A DNA stretch of 64,000 nt from assembly GCA_951406725.2 (NCBI GenBank), contig OX597815.1, positions 118,296,001 to 118,360,000 on the forward strand. Direction: 5' to 3'. Shown in pieces: positions 2,253 to 54,812 of the stretch (its first letter is position 1; every line of letters begins with the position of its first letter). The position numbers and the translations under genes are program-made. The stretch comes from Octopus vulgaris. Lineage: Eukaryota. Under the pieces are notes generated by a model. It made no database searches and had not been told where the DNA came from. It worked only from the letters and a program-made list of their open reading frames with translations.

Positions 2253-3335
2253 CTATGTTTGACTTTTGCTTTATATTTGTACAAGTTGGCTCCAAGTCTC
2301 ACCCAGAGACCTCAAGAGACAACAGGTTGGAAGTTCATGTTGTTGTTATGCCTAGTGTGCCATATATTGGGGAGGGGGGAGTTTTTGGTGTTATATTAAT
2401 GAATGTCTAAAAAAAAAATTTTTTTTTTTTTTAAACCGAAAATTATGTTTGTTTTAAACCTTGAGATTACATAGAAAGTATTTTGCGTAGGATATGAGCA
2501 GTTCCCATGAGCACTATCTTTTGAATTTCTGCCATTTTTGGGATTCCTGGTATCTGAGTTAGGTAGCTATCAGCCCCTTTTGCTATCATTCCCAGGTCAC
2601 CTATGACAACAGGTATTGTTTTAGTCTTCAGGTTCCACATTTTGCTGATTTCTATTTCAAGATCTTTATATTTGCTCAGTTTTTGGTAGGTCTTGACAGA
2701 TACGTTTATATCGATTGGGACAGTCATATCAATGAGGAGGCATGTTCTTTGTTTGAAGTCTTTCAATATGATGTCTGGCTTATTTGCATCTATCTTTCTG
2801 TCAGTTTGAATGGTGAAGTTCCAGAGGAGTGAGATGTGGTCATTTTCAAGCACTGGGGGTGGTTTGTGTTCCCACCAGTTTTTTTCATGGGGCAAATCCA
2901 GGTTTTTGCAGATTACCCAGTGAATATATTGTGCAGCTCTATCGTGTCTGTTGAGATACTCTGTAGGCGCTAGAAGACTGCACTTGGAGACCACATGGTC
3001 AATGGTTTCATTTTGTTGCTGGCATACACGACACGTTGGACTGCTTCTGATCTTTAATATGTTGGCCTGGTAGTTTCTTGTTGGTAGGCATTGATCTTGA
3101 GCTGCTATGATAAACCCCTCTGTTTCAGATTTTAAGCCAGAGGCCATTAGCCATTGATGGGTCAGGGCTTTGTCAACATCTGCATTATTTGCTCTCTTTG
3201 GGTATTTGCCATAGAGAGGTTTTTCTTGCCATTTATCATTCAGAATATCTAAGGCCGCAGATTTAGCACGGGTTTTCGTTCGCTTAGCTTTTTCTGTGCC
3301 TGTTTCTTGTATGTCTATCTCTAATTCCGAAATTG
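2253..3335 (-). mobile_element. 5'-truncated R4/Dong-clade non-LTR retrotransposon inserted in (TAA)n
   Basis: Encodes a CCHC knuckle and RLE endonuclease, followed by a 3' UTR. Both ends are flanked by (TAA)n in element sense. Confidence 0.9.
2467..3333 (-). CDS. C-terminal part of R4/Dong ORF: CCHC zinc knuckle + restriction-like endonuclease (PD-D/ExK)
   Basis: CRVC..ETIDHVVSKC, RHD, KPDII..LLIDMTVP..K..KY. The frame stays open upstream of the listed Met (WQEKPLYGKY...HQWL) to the truncation point. Confidence 0.85.
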   Translation of the reverse strand: MSELEIDIQETGTEKAKRTKTRAKSAALDILNDKWQEKPLYGKYPKRANNADVDKALTHQWLMASGLKSETEGFIIAAQDQCLPTRNYQANILKIRSSPTCRVCQQQNETIDHVVSKCSLLAPTEYLNRHDRAAQYIHWVICKNLDLPHEKNWWEHKPPPVLENDHISLLWNFTIQTDRKIDANKPDIILKDFKQRTCLLIDMTVPIDINVSVKTYQKLSKYKDLEIEISKMWNLKTKTIPVVIGDLGMIAKGADSYLTQIPGIPKMAEIQKIVLMGTAHILRKILSM

Positions 3336-3640
<305 letters not shown>

Positions 3641-7924: not shown

Positions 7925-8522
7925 ATGATAACATATCATAATAATATATGCACTCAGATTTAAAGCGTTTTTTTTTATATAAACAACTGACTGAAAAATG
8001 ATGAGCTAACCCAAGCCAGAATCGAACCCACATATCAACGCTATCACGGCTCCATGTGCATCCGATTGGGCCAAACGTTCACCCATCAATTTCAGCCAAA
8101 TTTTATGAATATATACTTTAAGTCTCCAATACTATATATAATATTTCAAAACAAACCCGAAGGTTTTGTAAGTTTCGGAGATAGAGCGACTATGGAAGCC
8201 ATTTAGTACAACAATAACTTCGGGTTTGTTTATAGATATTATATGTAGTATTGGACAGTTTAAGTATATTCATAAAATTTGGTTGAAATTGATGGGTGAG
8301 CGTTTGGCTCTATCAGATGTACATGGAACCGTGTTAGCGTTAATATGTGGGTTCGATTCTGGTCTGGGTTAGCACGTCATTTTTCAGTCAATTGTTTATA
8401 TAAAAAATGTCGCTTTAAATCGGAGTATATATATTATTATGATATATTATTATATAGTTATTATTGTACTAAGAGACTTTCATAGTTGCTCTGTCTTCGT
8501 AACTTATAAAGCCTTCGGGTTT
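7925..8522. mobile_element. Head-to-head pair of a ~295-nt unit with tRNA-like Pol III promoter, copies circularly permuted
   Basis: 7925-8162 is the reverse complement of 8219-8455, and 8160-8219 is the reverse complement of 8456-8518. A box TGGCCCAATCGG and B box GGTTCGATTC are present. Confidence 0.8.
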
Positions 8523-8571
8523 ATATATATGTGTGTGTTTGTGTGTGTGTGTATATATATATAGAGAGAGG

Positions 8572-10170
8572 AGAGAACGAGAAATGCTTAGAGGAACAAA
8601 TGCCACTATACCAGGTCTTCATAGATTTAACTAAGGCATTTGACACGGTAAACAGAGAGGCACTGTGGATTGTTTTGTGTAAACTTGGTTGCCCAACACA
8701 TTTTGTGGGCATCTTTAAGGAACTACACAGAAACATGAAAGCTCAGGAATTTTCAGTAGACAATGGTGTCAAACGGGGAGATATTCCTACCCCTATACTT
8801 TTCTCTATTTATTTTGCAGCATTGCTTTGGTATGCTTTCAAGGATTGCAACAGGGGAATTGGAATCAGATTTCGGACATCTGGTCGTATTTTTAATTTGA
8901 TCCGGTTTAATTGCAAAGCAAAGACTTTCAAAAGACTTGTTAGAGAATTACTTTATGCTGATGATGCTAATTTGTTGGCACACTCAGAGGGGGATATGCA
9001 ACATTTAATGGACAGATTTTCCACTGCATGTGTACATTTTGGACTCACAATTAGTCTTGGGAAAACCAAAATAGTGTTTACTCCCGTGCCAGGACAAAAA
9101 TATTCTGAACCTAATATGTGAATGGAACAAGGTTAGAAGTCGTTAACACCTTTGTTTACCTAGGAAGCACACTGTCAAAAGATGGTAATCTTGATGTAGA
9201 GATATATTATTAAATAGGGAAGGGAAGTGTTGCATTTGGAAAGCTAGAAAAGCGAGTATGGGCGGAAAGAGGTATTTCCCTGTAGACAAAAATCGGTGTC
9301 TATAAAGCGTGTGTATTGTCTGCACTTCTTTATTCAAGTGAGACATGGACCACTTACAAGCGATTTCATGAAAAGTGTATCAGACGTATCTTAGGAGACA
9401 AGTGGGAATGTTTTATACTAGATACAGAGGTTTTGCGCATGGCATGTTGCAGTTCAATTGAACAACATGTTATCTTGGTTAAAATGAGATGGACTGAACA
9501 TGTTATTAGAATGAAATACGAGCATTTGCCAAAGAGTCTTTTTTATGGTAAGCTCAACTTTGGTAAGCGACCACAACATAACCCGAGGAAAAGGTATAAA
9601 GACTATGTGAAGGAAAACCTAAAGAAACTAGATATGAACAAAAGTGATTGGGAAAATGATGTTCTAGATCGGAACAAGTGGAAAGGTGCTGTTAGGACTG
9701 GTTGCAATGCCTGAGAGGAAAAGATGATTTAGCACTCTGAATTTCAAAGAGCCTCTTCCAAAAGAACAATTGGAACTGTAATCAACAGGGAACATTGGAT
9801 ATGTATTATATGTGACAGTGTTCTGTTGTCAAAAGCAGGATACGTGAATCATATGAAGTCACATGAAAATCGTAATGTCCTGATAGGTAATGATCTTGGA
9901 CACCAACTGCCTCTTACGACTTGAGTCGAATGTCAAAAAACTTTAGGACAATGTGTGGACTTAAAAGACATATGCTAGTTTACAATAACATTCCTTTAGA
10001 ATCGGAAGAAACTTGAATAATATGTCATTTGTGTTTTAAACCCAGTCAAACAGCAGCTGGTGTTAAAAGTTATCTAAGGGCTCATCAACGGAGTCATTGT
10101 ACTGTGGGATGGAGTGTGGTTTGTATATTGATGGGGCGGTTATCATCTGTCAAGATGAAGCAATCATCAT
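8572..10170 (+). mobile_element. 5'-truncated, frameshifted RTE-clade (BovB-like) LINE
   Basis: RT motifs FIDLTKAFDTVNR, GVKRGD and LLYADD, followed by LLYSSETW and RWTEHVIRM, C-terminal CCHH fingers and a 3' tail into microsatellite. Confidence 0.92.
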
Positions 10171-27118: not shown

Positions 27119-27362
27119 TTCGTTTTTGGATTTGTTTTGCAAGATTCCTTATATGAGTTCGTGTGTTGAAGCATATTCTGTTGTGTCTGGGGGGAGTCAT
27201 TTTCTATTTGTGCCTTGAAAAGACTATTGAAAAGGTTGCAAGACGCAACGAAAATTTTAGGAAAATAAAAAAAAAAGAAATAAGTGGAAATTTTACCGGT
27301 GAGTGTGTTAAATTATAAGGTACAAAAAGAAAATGACTCTTCCCAGACATAACAGTATATAT
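27119..27362. mobile_element. (TA)n-flanked repeat with internal inversion; second copy at 47555-47697
   Basis: 27172-27216 is the reverse complement of ~27317-27360, and 27221-27360 recurs at 47560-47697. Confidence 0.75.
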
Positions 27363-27366
27363 ATAT

Positions 27367-27785
27367 TGGGGCTAAAAACTACAGTAGCATCCACCCTTAG
27401 GGGTTAGCCATATTGAAATGGCAAAAAATACGTCACGATGTGTTACCGCTACTGTATATAACTCACTTTGATATTTATCATTGTTTGATTTCACTTTTTC
27501 AATATCAGCGACAGTGGACGCTGGAAAAAGTATAAGTATTTGTGAAGGAAATCTAATTCTCGGCGACAACTATGATTGTCACACGCTGACGAGAGGTCAA
27601 TACCTCGAAACTCGAGTCCGTGTGTATCATAAGTTGAAGACGGGAAGGATGACTTCCCTTTGCAAATACTGACAGGACACAGATAGTGTGTCTATGGCCA
27701 GCTGGAGGAGTGTGTCCTCCTGGGGCTAAAAACTACAGTAGCATCCACCCTTAGGGGTTAGCCATATTGAAATGGCAAAATTACG

Positions 27786-27789
<4 letters not shown>
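27367..27789 (+). mobile_element. Retrozyme-like element: 354-nt unit with ~70-nt terminal direct repeat and an intact hammerhead
   Basis: 27367-27436 repeats at 27721-27789 with the first 60 nt identical. The element is flanked by TA tracts and has no meaningful ORF. Confidence 0.85.
27571..27631 (+). ncRNA. Type I hammerhead ribozyme
   Basis: CACACG CTGACGA GAGG tcaata CCTC GAA ACTCGAGT C CGTGTG. Full catalytic core, 6-bp stem I extended by TATGAT/ATCATA, 4-bp stem II, palindromic stem III, predicted GUC cleavage after 27618. Confidence 0.9.
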
Positions 27790-27878
<89 letters not shown>

Positions 27879-30368: not shown

Positions 30369-30461
30369 TATAAATAAACCGGGAAACCGTTACTAAATAT
30401 ATATTAAAGCAATTTATTAATTATTTTTTTTAATGCGCCCTTTTCAAGCCTAGCCAGGCTC

Positions 30462-31700
30462 ATGGGCCCGGTTTCCCGGTTTCTGTGGCGTATACCAGAC
30501 TTGTTCGGGCACCCACTGGCTAGCGTGTACGCGAACTGGCAACAGAATGGGTTTATCCCCAGATTTGTGCGCCGGGAAGAGGTGACGTTGATCAGAAAGG
30601 ACCCGGACAAGGGGGACGTTTTAGATAATTTCAGGCCCATCACTCTGTTAAACGCAGAAGTGAAGATTTTGGCCAAGGTTTTAGCAAAAATGTTGGTGCG
30701 TGTCGCGAATGGTATAGTCGGAGAGGCACAGACATGTGTAATCCCAAGCAGAACCATTCAGGATAATCTCCATCTTACTCGCTATACCATAGAATGGGTT
30801 GGTGATAACTCTGGCACAGGTGGGGCATTGGTGCATTTAGATCAATCTAAAGCTTTTGATAGGGTCGACCATCGATACCTGGCGACTGTGCTTGCGCGGT
30901 TTGGCCTGGGCCTTGACTTCCTCAGGTGGTTCATCGCTCTGTATCACAACATTGACTCTATAGTTCGGGTGAACGGTTTCCTTTCGAAACCGTTCTGCAT
31001 CAGACGCTCGGTTCGTCAAGGATGTCCGCTCTCACCACTTTTGTATGTGGTGGCTTTTGAGCTCCTACTGCGAAAGTTGAGTGACATCCCGAGAGAACCA
31101 GGACTAGAGGAGTTTGTTTCAGCTTACGCGGACGATATCGCTATCAGCGTTACCACAGTAGCACGCCTACGTGAAGTGGGTAAGGCTTTTGAGGTTTACG
31201 AGACGGTGGCAGGAGCAAAGATCAACTGGGAAAAGTCGGTTGGCTTGCAGCTCGGCACCTGGGTTGGCAAGTCGATGCCTTCAGACAGCGTTGTTGGGCG
31301 CTGGACGGAGGGACCGGTTAAATTGCTGGGAGTCTGGTTTGGACCAGGCCTCCAGATAGAGAAGAACTGGACGGAGGTTTCGAGCGGGATGGCTGCAATA
31401 GTCAAGACCTGGTCTTGGCGGTGGTTATCCCTGAAAAGGAGGGCAGAGGCGGCCAATGTGTTTATCGCATCGGTCATTACCTACCGCCTGACCGTCATGC
31501 CCTGTCCGGATTCGTGGGTGATCAGGTTGGAGAGGCAGCTCTTTCGCTTTTTGTGGAAGGGCAAGTCGCCACTTGTGAAACACTCTATCTGTTGTCAGAA
31601 GCCGTTAAAGGGAGGTTCAGGGGTGCCTTGGTTAATAATGCGTAGGCATGCGTTGAGGTTGAGGCATCTCTGGATTCTCCTGGATGGTGAACGGATGTGA
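30462..31700 (+). CDS. Tx1-like reverse transcriptase ORF2 fragment (first ~10 codons derive from an adjacent SINE tail)
   Basis: NFRPITLLN, LDQSKAFDRVDH, SVRQGCPLSPLLY, AYADDI, KLLGVWF, F.W.GK. Confidence 0.8.
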   Translation: MGPVSRFLWRIPDLFGHPLASVYANWQQNGFIPRFVRREEVTLIRKDPDKGDVLDNFRPITLLNAEVKILAKVLAKMLVRVANGIVGEAQTCVIPSRTIQDNLHLTRYTIEWVGDNSGTGGALVHLDQSKAFDRVDHRYLATVLARFGLGLDFLRWFIALYHNIDSIVRVNGFLSKPFCIRRSVRQGCPLSPLLYVVAFELLLRKLSDIPREPGLEEFVSAYADDIAISVTTVARLREVGKAFEVYETVAGAKINWEKSVGLQLGTWVGKSMPSDSVVGRWTEGPVKLLGVWFGPGLQIEKNWTEVSSGMAAIVKTWSWRWLSLKRRAEAANVFIASVITYRLTVMPCPDSWVIRLERQLFRFLWKGKSPLVKHSICCQKPLKGGSGVPWLIMRRHALRLRHLWILLDGERM

Positions 31701-37320: not shown

Positions 37321-39468
37321 ATTTATGGCTGCCCCCTCGTTATCGAGTATGGCCATTGCACGAAGCTTAACTGTTACTGGTACTGTGATCGAATGTGACT
37401 TTTTAGCCCAGCTAAAGATCTACAATGTTTTGTACAAAATTGGCAACTAAAACCTTTACCGGTAATAGCCGACTGTAGTTGTAACTGGGCTTCATGTACC
37501 TTTGCATGTCGTTTAAGTCCTCCTGCCGAATTACACTCTCTTCCACATGCCTAACAGATATGATTAGTAAGGTGTGTAACACCACCACCAGTGGCCAGGT
37601 TGTCACTCATCTGTCTCGCTTTATGACTACGAAGATGACTCTTGAGTCCAGCTTTACTGAGGCAGGGTCTTGCACAGACACTTCATGTCAGCATCATAGG
37701 AAGACCCTTCCCATCTGGAAGTGTAACAGCGATGCCCTTCCTGACATCTCTCCTTACTTTCTCATGTGCAACTCGAGATTTCTCAAAAGTGACTGTCCTC
37801 TCGTGCACAATCCTTCTCCACCTGCTACGATCAATATCTATGCCTTCCCATGTGTCAGGAGAGATGCAAGCATCTCTTAAGGGAGCCTTCAACAAGTCCT
37901 TATACCTCTTTTTTGGTTTATGGGGAGGTCGTTCTCCTTTAGCTAACTCTCCATAAAAGAGTTGTTTTGGCATCCTTGAATCCTTCATCCTGACCAGATG
38001 ACCACTCCATCTGAGCCTTTGCTTTAACACAAAAGCTTCTATACTTTCACACCAAGAGCCTTCCAATATTTCAAGATCACTGATGCGGTCCTTCCACTTA
38101 ATGACATAGATCCGCCTGAGACACATCTGATGGAAACGTTCCAGTTGTTTAAGGTGGAATCGATATGTGACCCACGTCTCGCAGGCATAGAGAAGAGAAG
38201 GGAGCACACATGCCTTGTACACCTTTATCTTTGTCTTTCTGCATATGTCTCGCCGACTCCAGAGGCGCTTTTCTAGCCTTCCGAAAGCAACACTTGCTTT
38301 CCTAATTCTATAAGGAATTTCATCATCCAAATTGCTATATCTATTAATAGTGCTTCCCAGGTAGATAAGCTGATCAAGTGCATGAAGCCGTTTACCATAC
38401 ACATATATATTTGATACACTATACTGCTTACCAGGGGCAGGTTGATGCATGACAACAGTTTTCTTGAGATTGACTGTCAATCCTGAGGCAGTGCAAGCAT
38501 CAGAGAATGCATTCAAAATGTGTTGCATATCAATCTCTGTGTGTGCTACTGGCTCACAATCATCTGCATACAAAAAGTCTCTCATGATAGAGGTAAATAC
38601 CTTTGTTTTCGCAGCAAAGCGCCTGATATTAAATATGCTGCCAGAGGTTCGATAATGGCTGTAAACACTGTATCTGCATTTTCTGAATGCAATACAGAAC
38701 ACCATCGCAAAATATATGGAAAATAGGGTCGGTGCCAGAATATCCTCCTGTTTCACTCCATTTTGTATTGAAATGGGCTCCGACATTTTCCCTCTAACAT
38801 TCGCCCTACCATTCATGTCTTCATGAAAAGACCTAACCAAAGCAAGGAACTTTTCAGGACACCCAAGTTTCTGGAGGACTTTCCACAATGCTTTTCTATT
38901 GACGGTATCAAAGGCTTTTGTCAGATCGACAAAAACCTGATATAAATCCAGACCCTGTTCCACACACTTCTCCTGAAGCTGTCTAGCTGAAAAGATCATA
39001 TCAGCAGTGCTGCGTCCCACACGAAAGCCAGATTGACTTTCTGGAAGAACACAATCAGCACCGTTTTTCAGCAGACGATCCAGAAGTACCCTGCATAAAA
39101 CCTTTCCTACGACAGACAGCAATGATACTCCTCTATAATTACCACAATCATTCCTGTTGCCCTTTCCCTTATACAGGACCACCATTACTGTATCTCTCCA
39201 GTCCTCAGGTATAGATTCACTAGTCCATATCTTACCAAACAAAGAGTGAAGTTTCTGCAGAAGTTTCTCACCACCATGTTGTAACAACTCCGCATGTATG
39301 CCATCCATACCCGGAGACTTCCCATTATTCAACCTTGAGACAGCCGCTGCAACTTCTTCCAACTTTGGTGGTTCTGCAAGTGCTGCCTTCACAGGTAATC
39401 CAGGGATGAGATTGAGAACATCATCACTAACTACAGACTGCTGATTCAAAAGTTCATCAAAGTGCTCT

Positions 39469-39473
<5 letters not shown>
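37321..39473 (-). mobile_element. 5'-truncated RTE-clade LINE, well preserved, with (GTAT)n tail
   Basis: 588-aa RT ORF, a frameshifted CCHH (PCLSKAGLKSH) and a 3' stem-loop TGGCCATACTCGATAACGAGGGGGCAGCCA. Confidence 0.95.
37683..39449 (-). CDS. RTE reverse transcriptase (endonuclease missing through truncation)
   Basis: KSPGMDGI, NYRGVSLLS, QSGFR, FVDLTKAFDTVNR, FLYADD, YLGS, LRWSGHLVRM. Confidence 0.9.
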   Translation of the reverse strand: MNQQSVVSDDVLNLIPGLPVKAALAEPPKLEEVAAAVSRLNNGKSPGMDGIHAELLQHGGEKLLQKLHSLFGKIWTSESIPEDWRDTVMVVLYKGKGNRNDCGNYRGVSLLSVVGKVLCRVLLDRLLKNGADCVLPESQSGFRVGRSTADMIFSARQLQEKCVEQGLDLYQVFVDLTKAFDTVNRKALWKVLQKLGCPEKFLALVRSFHEDMNGRANVRGKMSEPISIQNGVKQEDILAPTLFSIYFAMVFCIAFRKCRYSVYSHYRTSGSIFNIRRFAAKTKVFTSIMRDFLYADDCEPVAHTEIDMQHILNAFSDACTASGLTVNLKKTVVMHQPAPGKQYSVSNIYVYGKRLHALDQLIYLGSTINRYSNLDDEIPYRIRKASVAFGRLEKRLWSRRDICRKTKIKVYKACVLPSLLYACETWVTYRFHLKQLERFHQMCLRRIYVIKWKDRISDLEILEGSWCESIEAFVLKQRLRWSGHLVRMKDSRMPKQLFYGELAKGERPPHKPKKRYKDLLKAPLRDACISPDTWEGIDIDRSRWRRIVHERTVTFEKSRVAHEKVRRDVRKGIAVTLPDGKGLPMMLT

Positions 39474-39505
<32 letters not shown>

Positions 39506-39535
39506 CAAAATAAGCAACAGGATATCATGTAGTGA

Positions 39536-53509: not shown

Positions 53510-54812
53510 ATTTCAGGACATGAACGCTTCAAAACTGACTCCATCACCAAGGCCACACACCTGGTACTAAAGGAAAACACCTTTAGATTCGATAATAAAA
53601 CATATCGGTAGATAAAGGGCCCGGCTATGAGGAGGCGGTTTGCACCCTCATATGCTAACCTAGTCATGATGTACTTGGAAGAAAAGGTTTATGAAGAAGT
53701 AGAGAGAGCTTTTAATTAGGATTACAATAAATACATCATTGAAAAGTGGAAACGCTTCCTCGATGGCTGCTTCATTTTTTGGGGACAAATCAAATGAGAA
53801 CCTACAAATATGTAATAATATACTCAACACACTTCACCCATCCATCAAATTCACGACAGAATCCAGTTGCAATGGACTGCCATTCCTGGATATTCACATA
53901 AAAATTCACAACTACACAGTCATATTTTATAAGACATATTTTACAAAAAAAAAAAAACCGGACACGCAACCAATATTTGAGCTTCTACTCTTGCCATCCT
54001 TCCACATCAAAAGGAACATCCCATACAGCATGGCAAGACGTATCTGTATTGTAGTGATTGACCCCAAAATACGTCAAATCCAACTCAACGAGTTCAAAAT
54101 CTTCCTAACAAAGCAGAAACACCCCTTGTGATTAATAAACGATGGAATTAAAAAAGCAATGAAGCTGAACATCGCATAGCTAAGGATACCAAAGGAAAAA
54201 ATTAATGAAAACACAATTCCATTTATCAATATGCACAATCCTGAGGAAGCCAACATTTTTCACATCATAAACTCAAACTTATCTATACTTCTACAAATCC
54301 TCAAAATTAAAGATCTGATTGACAACAACCACTTACGAAACGGTGGACGCCAAACGTAAAGCTCAAAAACTACCTCACAAGAGCAAAATTCATATCAGAG
54401 AATGAATCAGAATTCTCCGTAAAAGAATGTAGTGATAACAGCTGTGGAAAATGCAACAACAACGACTTTAAATACTTAGAATGGGTTCCCACATAAAATC
54501 CAAGAGCAGATTCTCATTCAGAGTAAATGCAGATATGAACTGCAAGATGCAGAATCTTATATACTGTACTACTTTCCCCAACTACAAGGAAAATTACATT
54601 GGCAGAACAAACAATTCCCTCTGCCAACATGCAAGAATCCACGGACAACGCTTCCGACAAGAGGAATTGTGCAAGATTCCACTGGTGAAGGAAAATTCAA
54701 AATCTTTCCCTTTTACAAATCTTCAAGCTATGACCTAAAATTATGGACAGCAATGGAGCAACATCATCAAAAAATTCTCTGCAAAATTAAATGTTTGGAA
54801 GAGAAGCAGGGG
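53510..54812 (+). mobile_element. Degenerate Penelope-like element: RT C-half, thumb, GIY-YIG endonuclease
   Basis: APSYANLVM, WKRFLDGCF, LNTLHPSIKFT..LPFLDI, HIKRNIPYSMARRI, C..CGKC, NLIYC...YIGRT, with several frameshifts. Confidence 0.88.

Follow-up and report, generated by a model that had tools for sequence, protein, structure and literature searches.

The insertion, folding and genome-wide analyses reported here suggest that a family of short non-coding repeats in Octopus vulgaris is a non-LTR retrozyme, and that it is probably copied in trans by a Neptune-type Penelope reverse transcriptase-endonuclease from what is likely a circular RNA of 353 nt. The broader statement, that the family is a non-autonomous element mobilised by Penelope-like elements (PLEs), we regard as very likely. 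We found that retrozyme copies are not free permutations of their unit: their 3' ends are fixed and only the 5' end is random.

A single-armed retrozyme copy

The copy that we analysed in most detail lies in a 64,000-nt stretch of DNA (the window, to which all coordinates below refer). Its first 60 nt (27367-27426) recur at a spacing of 354 with 60/60 identity (27721-27780), and the direct repeat reaches 27789, the first copy having one additional A and the second an A>T change, which bears out the 354-nt unit, the terminal repeat of about 70 nt (69 nt as measured here) and the TA flanks of a first-pass annotation of this DNA. That annotation also gave 354 nt as the monomer length; this holds for the window copy, which carries a private extra A, but not for the family, in which the unit is usually 353 nt. 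The features are as follows.

27356..27366, no strand: 5' remnant of the (TA)n target, from the sequence
27367..27720, forward: full retrozyme unit, 354 nt, non-coding, 42% GC; the 5' end is the truncation point
27381-88 with 27448-55, forward: helix enclosing S1, with one G-C/A-U compensatory pair
27436..27439, forward: internal copy of S1 (unit positions 69-72), 47/87 segment ends
27480..27487, forward: internal copy of S2 (unit positions 113-120), 30/87 segment ends
27535-42 with 27663-70, forward: long-range helix closing the hammerhead domain, 86% paired
27572-76 with 27626-30, forward: helix extending stem I, 100% paired cells, 2/5 pairs changed on both sides
27580..27624, forward: type I hammerhead (Rfam RF00163, double-hammerhead fold, covariation)
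27580-85/27619-24, forward: hammerhead stem I, CACACG/CGUGUG
27586-92 and 27607-10, forward: hammerhead core, CUGACGA...GAAA
27593-97/27602-06, forward: hammerhead stem II, 4-5 bp, from the fold
27610-17, forward: hammerhead stem III, palindromic ACUCGAGU, from the fold and conserved palindromes
27618, forward: C of the GUC site, after which the cut is predicted from the core sequence
27676..27789, forward: hairpin cluster directly upstream of S1, the most conserved across sister subfamilies (subfamily alignment)
27721..27789, forward: start of the next turn, 69 nt, stopping at the fixed 3' site S1, the putative start of reverse transcription
27790..27874, no strand: 3' (TA)n target and presumed primer side, from the sequence and from the TA that follows 67/77 S1/S2 ends family-wide

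The longest ATG frame of the unit has 38 codons and was rejected as a gene, since the extra A breaks it in the window copy and sister copies do not keep it. ARAGORN found no tRNA in the window, and retrozyme copies show no LTR pair around a unique body. The window copy is likely a 1.2-unit, single-armed S1 product of the retrozyme family, and because it has one hammerhead only it cannot itself free a monomer by double cleavage. Its 5' flank (27250-27355) is itself a high-copy repeat, and other retroelement fragments with RVT_1 or zf-RVT matches lie at 2470-3336, 8510-9118, 30408-31697 and 37686-39524.

The stretch is contained in 20 sequencing runs from 10 studies, 14 of them guessed to be RNA. 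In the four runs compared, all of them contigs, one contig of 383 nt spans 27376-27759 (353+30); we do not count it as evidence, since tandem DNA and a circle would each give 353+30. A metagenome scan with a 33-mer from the hammerhead gave 0 matches.

Hammerhead and RNA structure

The complete type I hammerhead proposed in the first-pass annotation is recovered by Rfam, in which 27580-27624 matches the full length of the Hammerhead_1 model at 32.2 bits (E 4.9e-6), 1.8 bits below the gathering score of 34. A scan of the whole window at gathering threshold gave no match, and the remaining E-value matches were set aside as TA-repeat noise. Core, stem I, palindromic stem III and a GUC site ending at 27618 are all as that annotation described them, but the AGGACAC/GTGTCCT hairpin that it listed is not a predicted pairing, and the fold and subfamily alignment instead support GACACA/UGUGUC and GGAGG/CCUCC.

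Folded as a circle, the unit has a z of -7.1 against 100 shuffles. With two hammerhead copies the minimum-energy fold is a double hammerhead (-33.9 versus -17.4 kcal/mol), and in the nearest-neighbour ensemble the active fold of a single, monomeric hammerhead has a probability of 2e-5. This last value and the sub-threshold Hammerhead_1 score are both marks against the circle model. Across 14 subfamily sequences 93.7% of cells pair in the consensus structure, and 12 of 62 pairs are changed on both sides compared with 0-2 in slid controls, in a test that is tilted towards this structure, since it was taken from the fold of family A, and that uses sister sequences related to one another. Stem III takes the form of four different perfect palindromes across the subfamilies; in three copies that are more distant or decayed the palindrome is imperfect. 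Positions 3 and 8 of the core are C-G, U-G or U-A. By analogy with the Penelope element studied by Frangieh (2024; PMC11167929), the hairpin cluster upstream of S1 may be a protein-binding region.

A young and dispersed family

We searched the genome (2.8 Gb, 227 contigs) by similarity and by exact pattern. The DNA search gave 112 matches, mostly at 99-100% identity (40 scored of 2,600 candidates). The exact hammerhead pattern occurs in 407 copies (191 forward, 216 reverse) spread over many chromosomes and both strands, so that the repeat is far from single-copy, and an exact S1-(TA) junction pattern has 189 matches; the reversed-pattern control gave 0 in both cases. Tandems reach about 5.8 units, and the mean substitution relative to the column majority is 0.8% (70 insertions). 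The family is young, and its ends and variants can therefore be read directly. With hundreds of dispersed, tandem, non-coding copies of a type I hammerhead, the suggestion that this is a non-LTR retrozyme holds at the family level. The tandem and permuted copies that it led one to look for were found in part: the family is tandem and multi-copy, but its copies are not free permutations.

Sister subfamilies are about 65-75% identical and share the same architecture, and a motif common to them has 2,888 matches. There are many such subfamilies, with differing hammerhead cores and palindromes (L019:500-960, L061-L090, L098:1235-1530, L151-L180 and the far end of L049), and some of their variants (UUGAUAA with ACAUGU or ACCGGU) resemble hammerheads in the pseudo-LTRs (pLTRs) of Neptune-type elements in this genome. 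The sets L004/L005, L104/L105 and L136 are near-identical insertions with identical junctions, which fits segmental duplication after insertion.

Two fixed 3' sites and paired inverted arms

Insertion ends were mapped in a sample of the exact matches (100 of the 407 listed, complete for C1-C3), from which 48 regions were fetched and 9 loci reused; after removal of L105 (a duplicate of L104) and of one distant 29-nt fragment in L112 this left 56 loci and 87 segments, in which short arms are under-represented because the sample requires an intact hammerhead. We found that 77 of the 87 segments have their 3' end at S1 or S2 and 10 elsewhere. The two sites are about 45 nt apart, and the interval between them corresponds to the Penelope 'tail'. 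TA repeats follow all but ten of the S1/S2 ends, and with (TA)n targets any target-site duplication is indistinguishable from the surrounding repeat. After S1 comes a 6-nt wobble-compatible stretch. Only one end uses the unit's best (AU)n-like stretch (86-93), and the start sites are therefore not chosen by homology to TA, so that homology-driven priming on TA was rejected.

In 27 of the 56 loci two arms stand inverted, head to head, and in all double-armed loci with both outer ends at a site (23/23; p 1e-7 against 0.5) one arm ends at S1 and the other at S2. The remaining 4 of the 27 have one end off S1/S2. The same pairing was seen in 12/12 further loci (11 from the best-hit set, and L166), giving 35/35 in total. 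Inner joins of the arms mostly overlap by 1-8 bases of microhomology. Of the loci with a single direction, 21/29 end at S1, as does the window copy.

The 5' ends, in contrast, are variable and do not pile up near the cut site (2/87 versus 2.7 expected), and a cleaved linear monomer as the sole template was rejected on this ground. The cut site is crossed by 67 of 77 arms with a seamless junction, and by 24 of them twice or more. There is an excess of 5' ends in unit positions 1-50 (window 27367-27416, just upstream of S1; 26/87 versus 12 expected), possibly from stalling at the protein-bound hairpins or at the cDNA of the other arm.

The template: probably one monomer read repeatedly

The two arms of an insertion agree at seven lineage sites in 25 of the 27 double-armed loci, the 2 exceptions being private letters rather than lineage alleles. 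With shuffled arm pairings, agreement falls to about 7 of 27 loci, and 0 of 20,000 shuffles did as well as 25/27. When successive turns are compared (excluding L005, L105, L134 and L136 as duplicates or non-contiguous), 52 of 54 cases have the lineage marker fixed in every turn, and of the 2 mosaic cases one lies at a misaligned edge. Twelve rare variants, in 10 insertions, are fixed in all turns, over up to 6 units across both arms, and 137 variants occur in one unit only, 60 of which have a same-turn unit without them in the other arm. Because arm haplotypes are shared and markers are fixed across turns, these data point to one monomer template that is reread, most simply as a ligated circle. 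The first-pass reading of the window copy as about 1.2 turns around a circular RNA is thus supported indirectly, by ends, arm haplotypes and turn markers, although its 3' end is a fixed site rather than any position on a circle.

Six rare variants occur in some turns of an insertion and are missing from others. At L127 position 231 the partial variant is in register between arms, and at L028 247 and L147 167 it links the last turn of one arm to the previous turn of the other. In a minority of insertions, then, the templates may have been multimeric or switched, or there may have been fold-back copying or gene conversion. Fold-back copying of the first cDNA could also be the source of the shared arm haplotypes in most loci; L107 is alone in clearly needing two separate starts, since neither of its arms contains the other.

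Such partial variants, and the one in register in particular, would fit a Penelope-mobilised non-autonomous element copied from uncleaved linear multimers of homogeneous tandem arrays, with no circle and a dispensable hammerhead. Read-through of the cut site is expected just as much from a multimer, PAc uses uncleaved RNA in vitro (Frangieh; PMC11167929), and Craig (2021; PMC8557442) describes, in the part drawn on here, non-autonomous head-to-tail Chlamys Penelope elements of a clade mostly without hammerheads. A multimer, however, predicts source mutations that are unit-specific and in register, whereas rare variants are instead mostly fixed in all turns (12 versus 1 in register) and mosaic markers are very scarce (2/54). 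In addition, unit number could not grow from such a template without rereading, and the hammerhead stems and stem III palindrome are preserved despite sequence change. We therefore consider this explanation unlikely, and retain the reread, putatively circular monomer as the template in what follows.

A candidate Penelope partner

We identified a family of open frames of 781 residues with a reverse transcriptase, a CX4CxxC linker (CGRPNCGIC) and a GIY-YIG domain at the C terminus, for which Pfam reports GIY-YIG and RVT_1 (E 1e-6, just under cut-off) and which we assign to the Neptune clade by its motifs. It is intact and young, with dozens of copies that are about 99% identical (95-100%). Similar to the retrozyme, its copies stop next to (TA)n at either of two sites separated by about 40 nt, both of which are paired in 3/3 double-armed copies, and a U3-A8 hammerhead variant is found in its pLTR. 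Its age, target and architecture make this family the candidate partner.

No nucleotide homology of the unit was seen to any of the Penelope elements examined (30 GIY-YIG loci and 12 full-length loci, from a GIY-YIG search in which 150 of 6,136 candidates were scored), and a related parent PLE is likewise absent from 30 loci of a second Neptune-type family, L137 itself apart. A Penelope protein match lies near only 3 of 57 sampled retrozyme loci (searched about 3 kb per side for 48 and 1.5 kb per side for 9). Two of these are distant decayed fragments, and in the third, L137, the match is to a family that is older and unrelated and whose pLTR is cut. There (L137:357-3560) a retrozyme is joined directly to the older pLTR, of which the last ~55 nt are missing; the PLE part is frameshifted, differs by 4-7% from its relatives and has its cut in an AT-rich part of the pLTR. 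We rejected this locus as a retrozyme-PLE chimera because the PLE part is older and its cut AT-rich, a later insertion being simpler than a template switch.

These counts bear on whether the copies are simply solo or 5'-truncated pLTRs of an autonomous Penelope element outside our sample. Autonomous Penelope insertions also have a tail, inverted arms and a TA target, and 24 of 57 Xenopus retrozyme families are homologous to repeats that are nearly all PLE termini (Li, Clavereau & Pollet 2026; 10.64898/2026.07.22.740005, in the part considered here). Against this, what lies upstream of S1/S2 is head-to-tail 353-nt units (up to ~5.8) and never an ORF, and in none of the 57 loci of the C1-C3 sample does a copy serve as the pLTR of a related Penelope ORF, so that the attachment of all copies to full PLE ORFs, which the first-pass annotation had raised as the opposing case, does not occur in this sample. 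We regard this explanation as very improbable. Tandem units and an Rfam score 1.8 bits short of threshold would also fit a DNA-level satellite or rolling-circle DNA element with an incidental hammerhead look-alike, which is hardly credible given fixed 3' but varying 5' ends, inverted arms, dispersal across many chromosomes and both strands, covariation in the RNA structure, and a protein-coding Penelope family of the same architecture.

Several further observations concern the Penelope elements themselves. L166 contains a double-armed retrozyme, then (TA)8, then the last ~100 nt of a pLTR of the 781-residue family, all at one TA tract. In a young intact Neptune-type family (L091:2745-5087, L094:1268-4968, L212-L221) a second, upstream stop-to-stop frame of 479 codons shares 79 nt with the reverse transcriptase frame, in the -1 frame; the shared stretch contains a T6-AG run, which the L137 family has too. 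The overlap is possibly a programmed frameshift; a frameshifted ORF1 in PLEs is mentioned in the legend of Fig. 1 of Craig (2021). In the window, 53525-54684 (forward) is a degraded Penelope fragment 30-43% identical to the 781-residue family.

Comparison with known retrozymes and Penelope elements

The comparisons below refer to the parts of the cited sources drawn on here. Non-LTR retrozymes were defined by Cervera & de la Peña (2020; PMC7229834), who report circles in coral, mussel and axolotl, with units of ~350-390 bp in mussel and 331/353 bp in axolotl, and who propose PLEs as the mobiliser. Similar to those elements, the octopus family is a dispersed, multi-copy set of non-coding tandem repeats (150-450 bp and under 50% GC in their description) found alongside autonomous Penelope elements, with a type I hammerhead, a short palindromic stem III and a highly paired predicted circle. 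This likeness is one of description, cleavage and circles being predictions here, and the insertion features resolved here (TA targeting, a pair of fixed 3' sites, and inverted arms that pair S1 with S2) are not described there. Octopus, squid or cephalopods have no mention in the main text of that paper. Dimeric folding and the U3-A8 variant were described earlier (Cervera & de la Peña 2014; PMC4209133).

Li and colleagues treat Xenopus retrozymes, which they link to pLTRs, as non-autonomous Penelope derivatives, and found that 1 of 9 predicted dimers cleaved and 8 of 9 did not, which also counts against our circle model. As in our family, their retrozymes co-occur with PLEs and exist as monomer, dimer and multimer copies. 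However, they draw the link from co-occurrence and pLTR homology, whereas here it is made through insertion architecture in the absence of pLTR homology, and they propose local amplification by unequal crossover, whereas the tandems here appear to be made at insertion.

For PAc, a Poseidon element of Anolis, Frangieh (PMC11167929) reports two internal reverse-transcription starts that match the tail, extension of both strands, and insertion in vitro that does not need hammerhead cleavage, the last of these being a further mark against the circle model. For the Neptune clade, Craig (PMC8557442) reports inverted arms, a tail that is often one-ended and a (TA)n bias. The octopus family shares with these two groups the two internal starts (putative in the octopus), a tail of 30-45 nt, AT-rich or (TA)n targets, a 5'-truncated inverted arm, an often one-ended tail and a hammerhead upstream of the starts. 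It differs from them in having no ORF, a 353-nt unit, a canonical rather than minimal hammerhead, and a cut site that lies upstream of the starts, by ~170 and 220 nt. The one-ended tail is, qualitatively, already in print; in the Penelope insertion literature consulted we did not find the strict S1+S2 pairing rule or shared arm haplotypes, and the review PMC11722881 adds, in the sections considered, nothing further on insertion ends. A published annotation of Octopus vulgaris repeats (PMC13282606) gives 31 Penelope-like families as recently active, and the passages considered do not use the words ribozyme or retrozyme. In the literature consulted on cephalopod hammerheads and Penelope insertion we found no description of the family, and the supplements of PMC7229834 and of Li et al. 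may list relatives.

Proposed mechanism and implications

We propose that tandem genomic copies would be transcribed, and that pairs of hammerheads in the transcript would join through the palindromic stem III into a double hammerhead and cleave, freeing 353-nt monomers that would then be ligated into circles; cleavage and circularisation are suggested by the folding, the conserved palindromes and known retrozymes. A Penelope protein, presumably of the Neptune type, may then bind the conserved hairpin cluster and nick (TA)n, the target at which the copies are found. The cDNA would begin at S1 or S2, the mapped 3' sites, by a priming reaction modelled on PAc biochemistry. The enzyme might next make between 0.1 and 5 turns of the template, passing the former cut site; this range is given by the observed tandem lengths. 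In about half of the insertions synthesis would proceed on both target strands, starting at S1 for one and at S2 for the other and using a common template sequence, and the resulting cDNAs would join head to head at microhomology; this twin priming is our reading of the inverted architecture seen at the double-armed loci.

At present we can offer a more specific version only tentatively, and think it somewhat less probable than its negation: that one Penelope dimer on one 353-nt circle primes both nicked TA strands, one subunit per start site, that both roll round, and that the RNA is recognised by structure alone by a Neptune-type element with which it has no sequence homology. If true, a dimer on a circle would be a single mechanism for Penelope tail asymmetry, inverted arms and retrozyme tandems, and would provide a ready in vitro pair for the proposed step of retrozyme mobilisation. 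Retrozyme copying from circles by Penelope enzymes has been proposed in print, and we found no demonstration of it in the parts of the literature examined. That the same genome has an intact Penelope family that matches makes mobilisation testable with a single protein, a single RNA and a TA target, and the S1+S2 pairing rule bears on how Penelope elements more generally form their inverted, one-tailed insertions.
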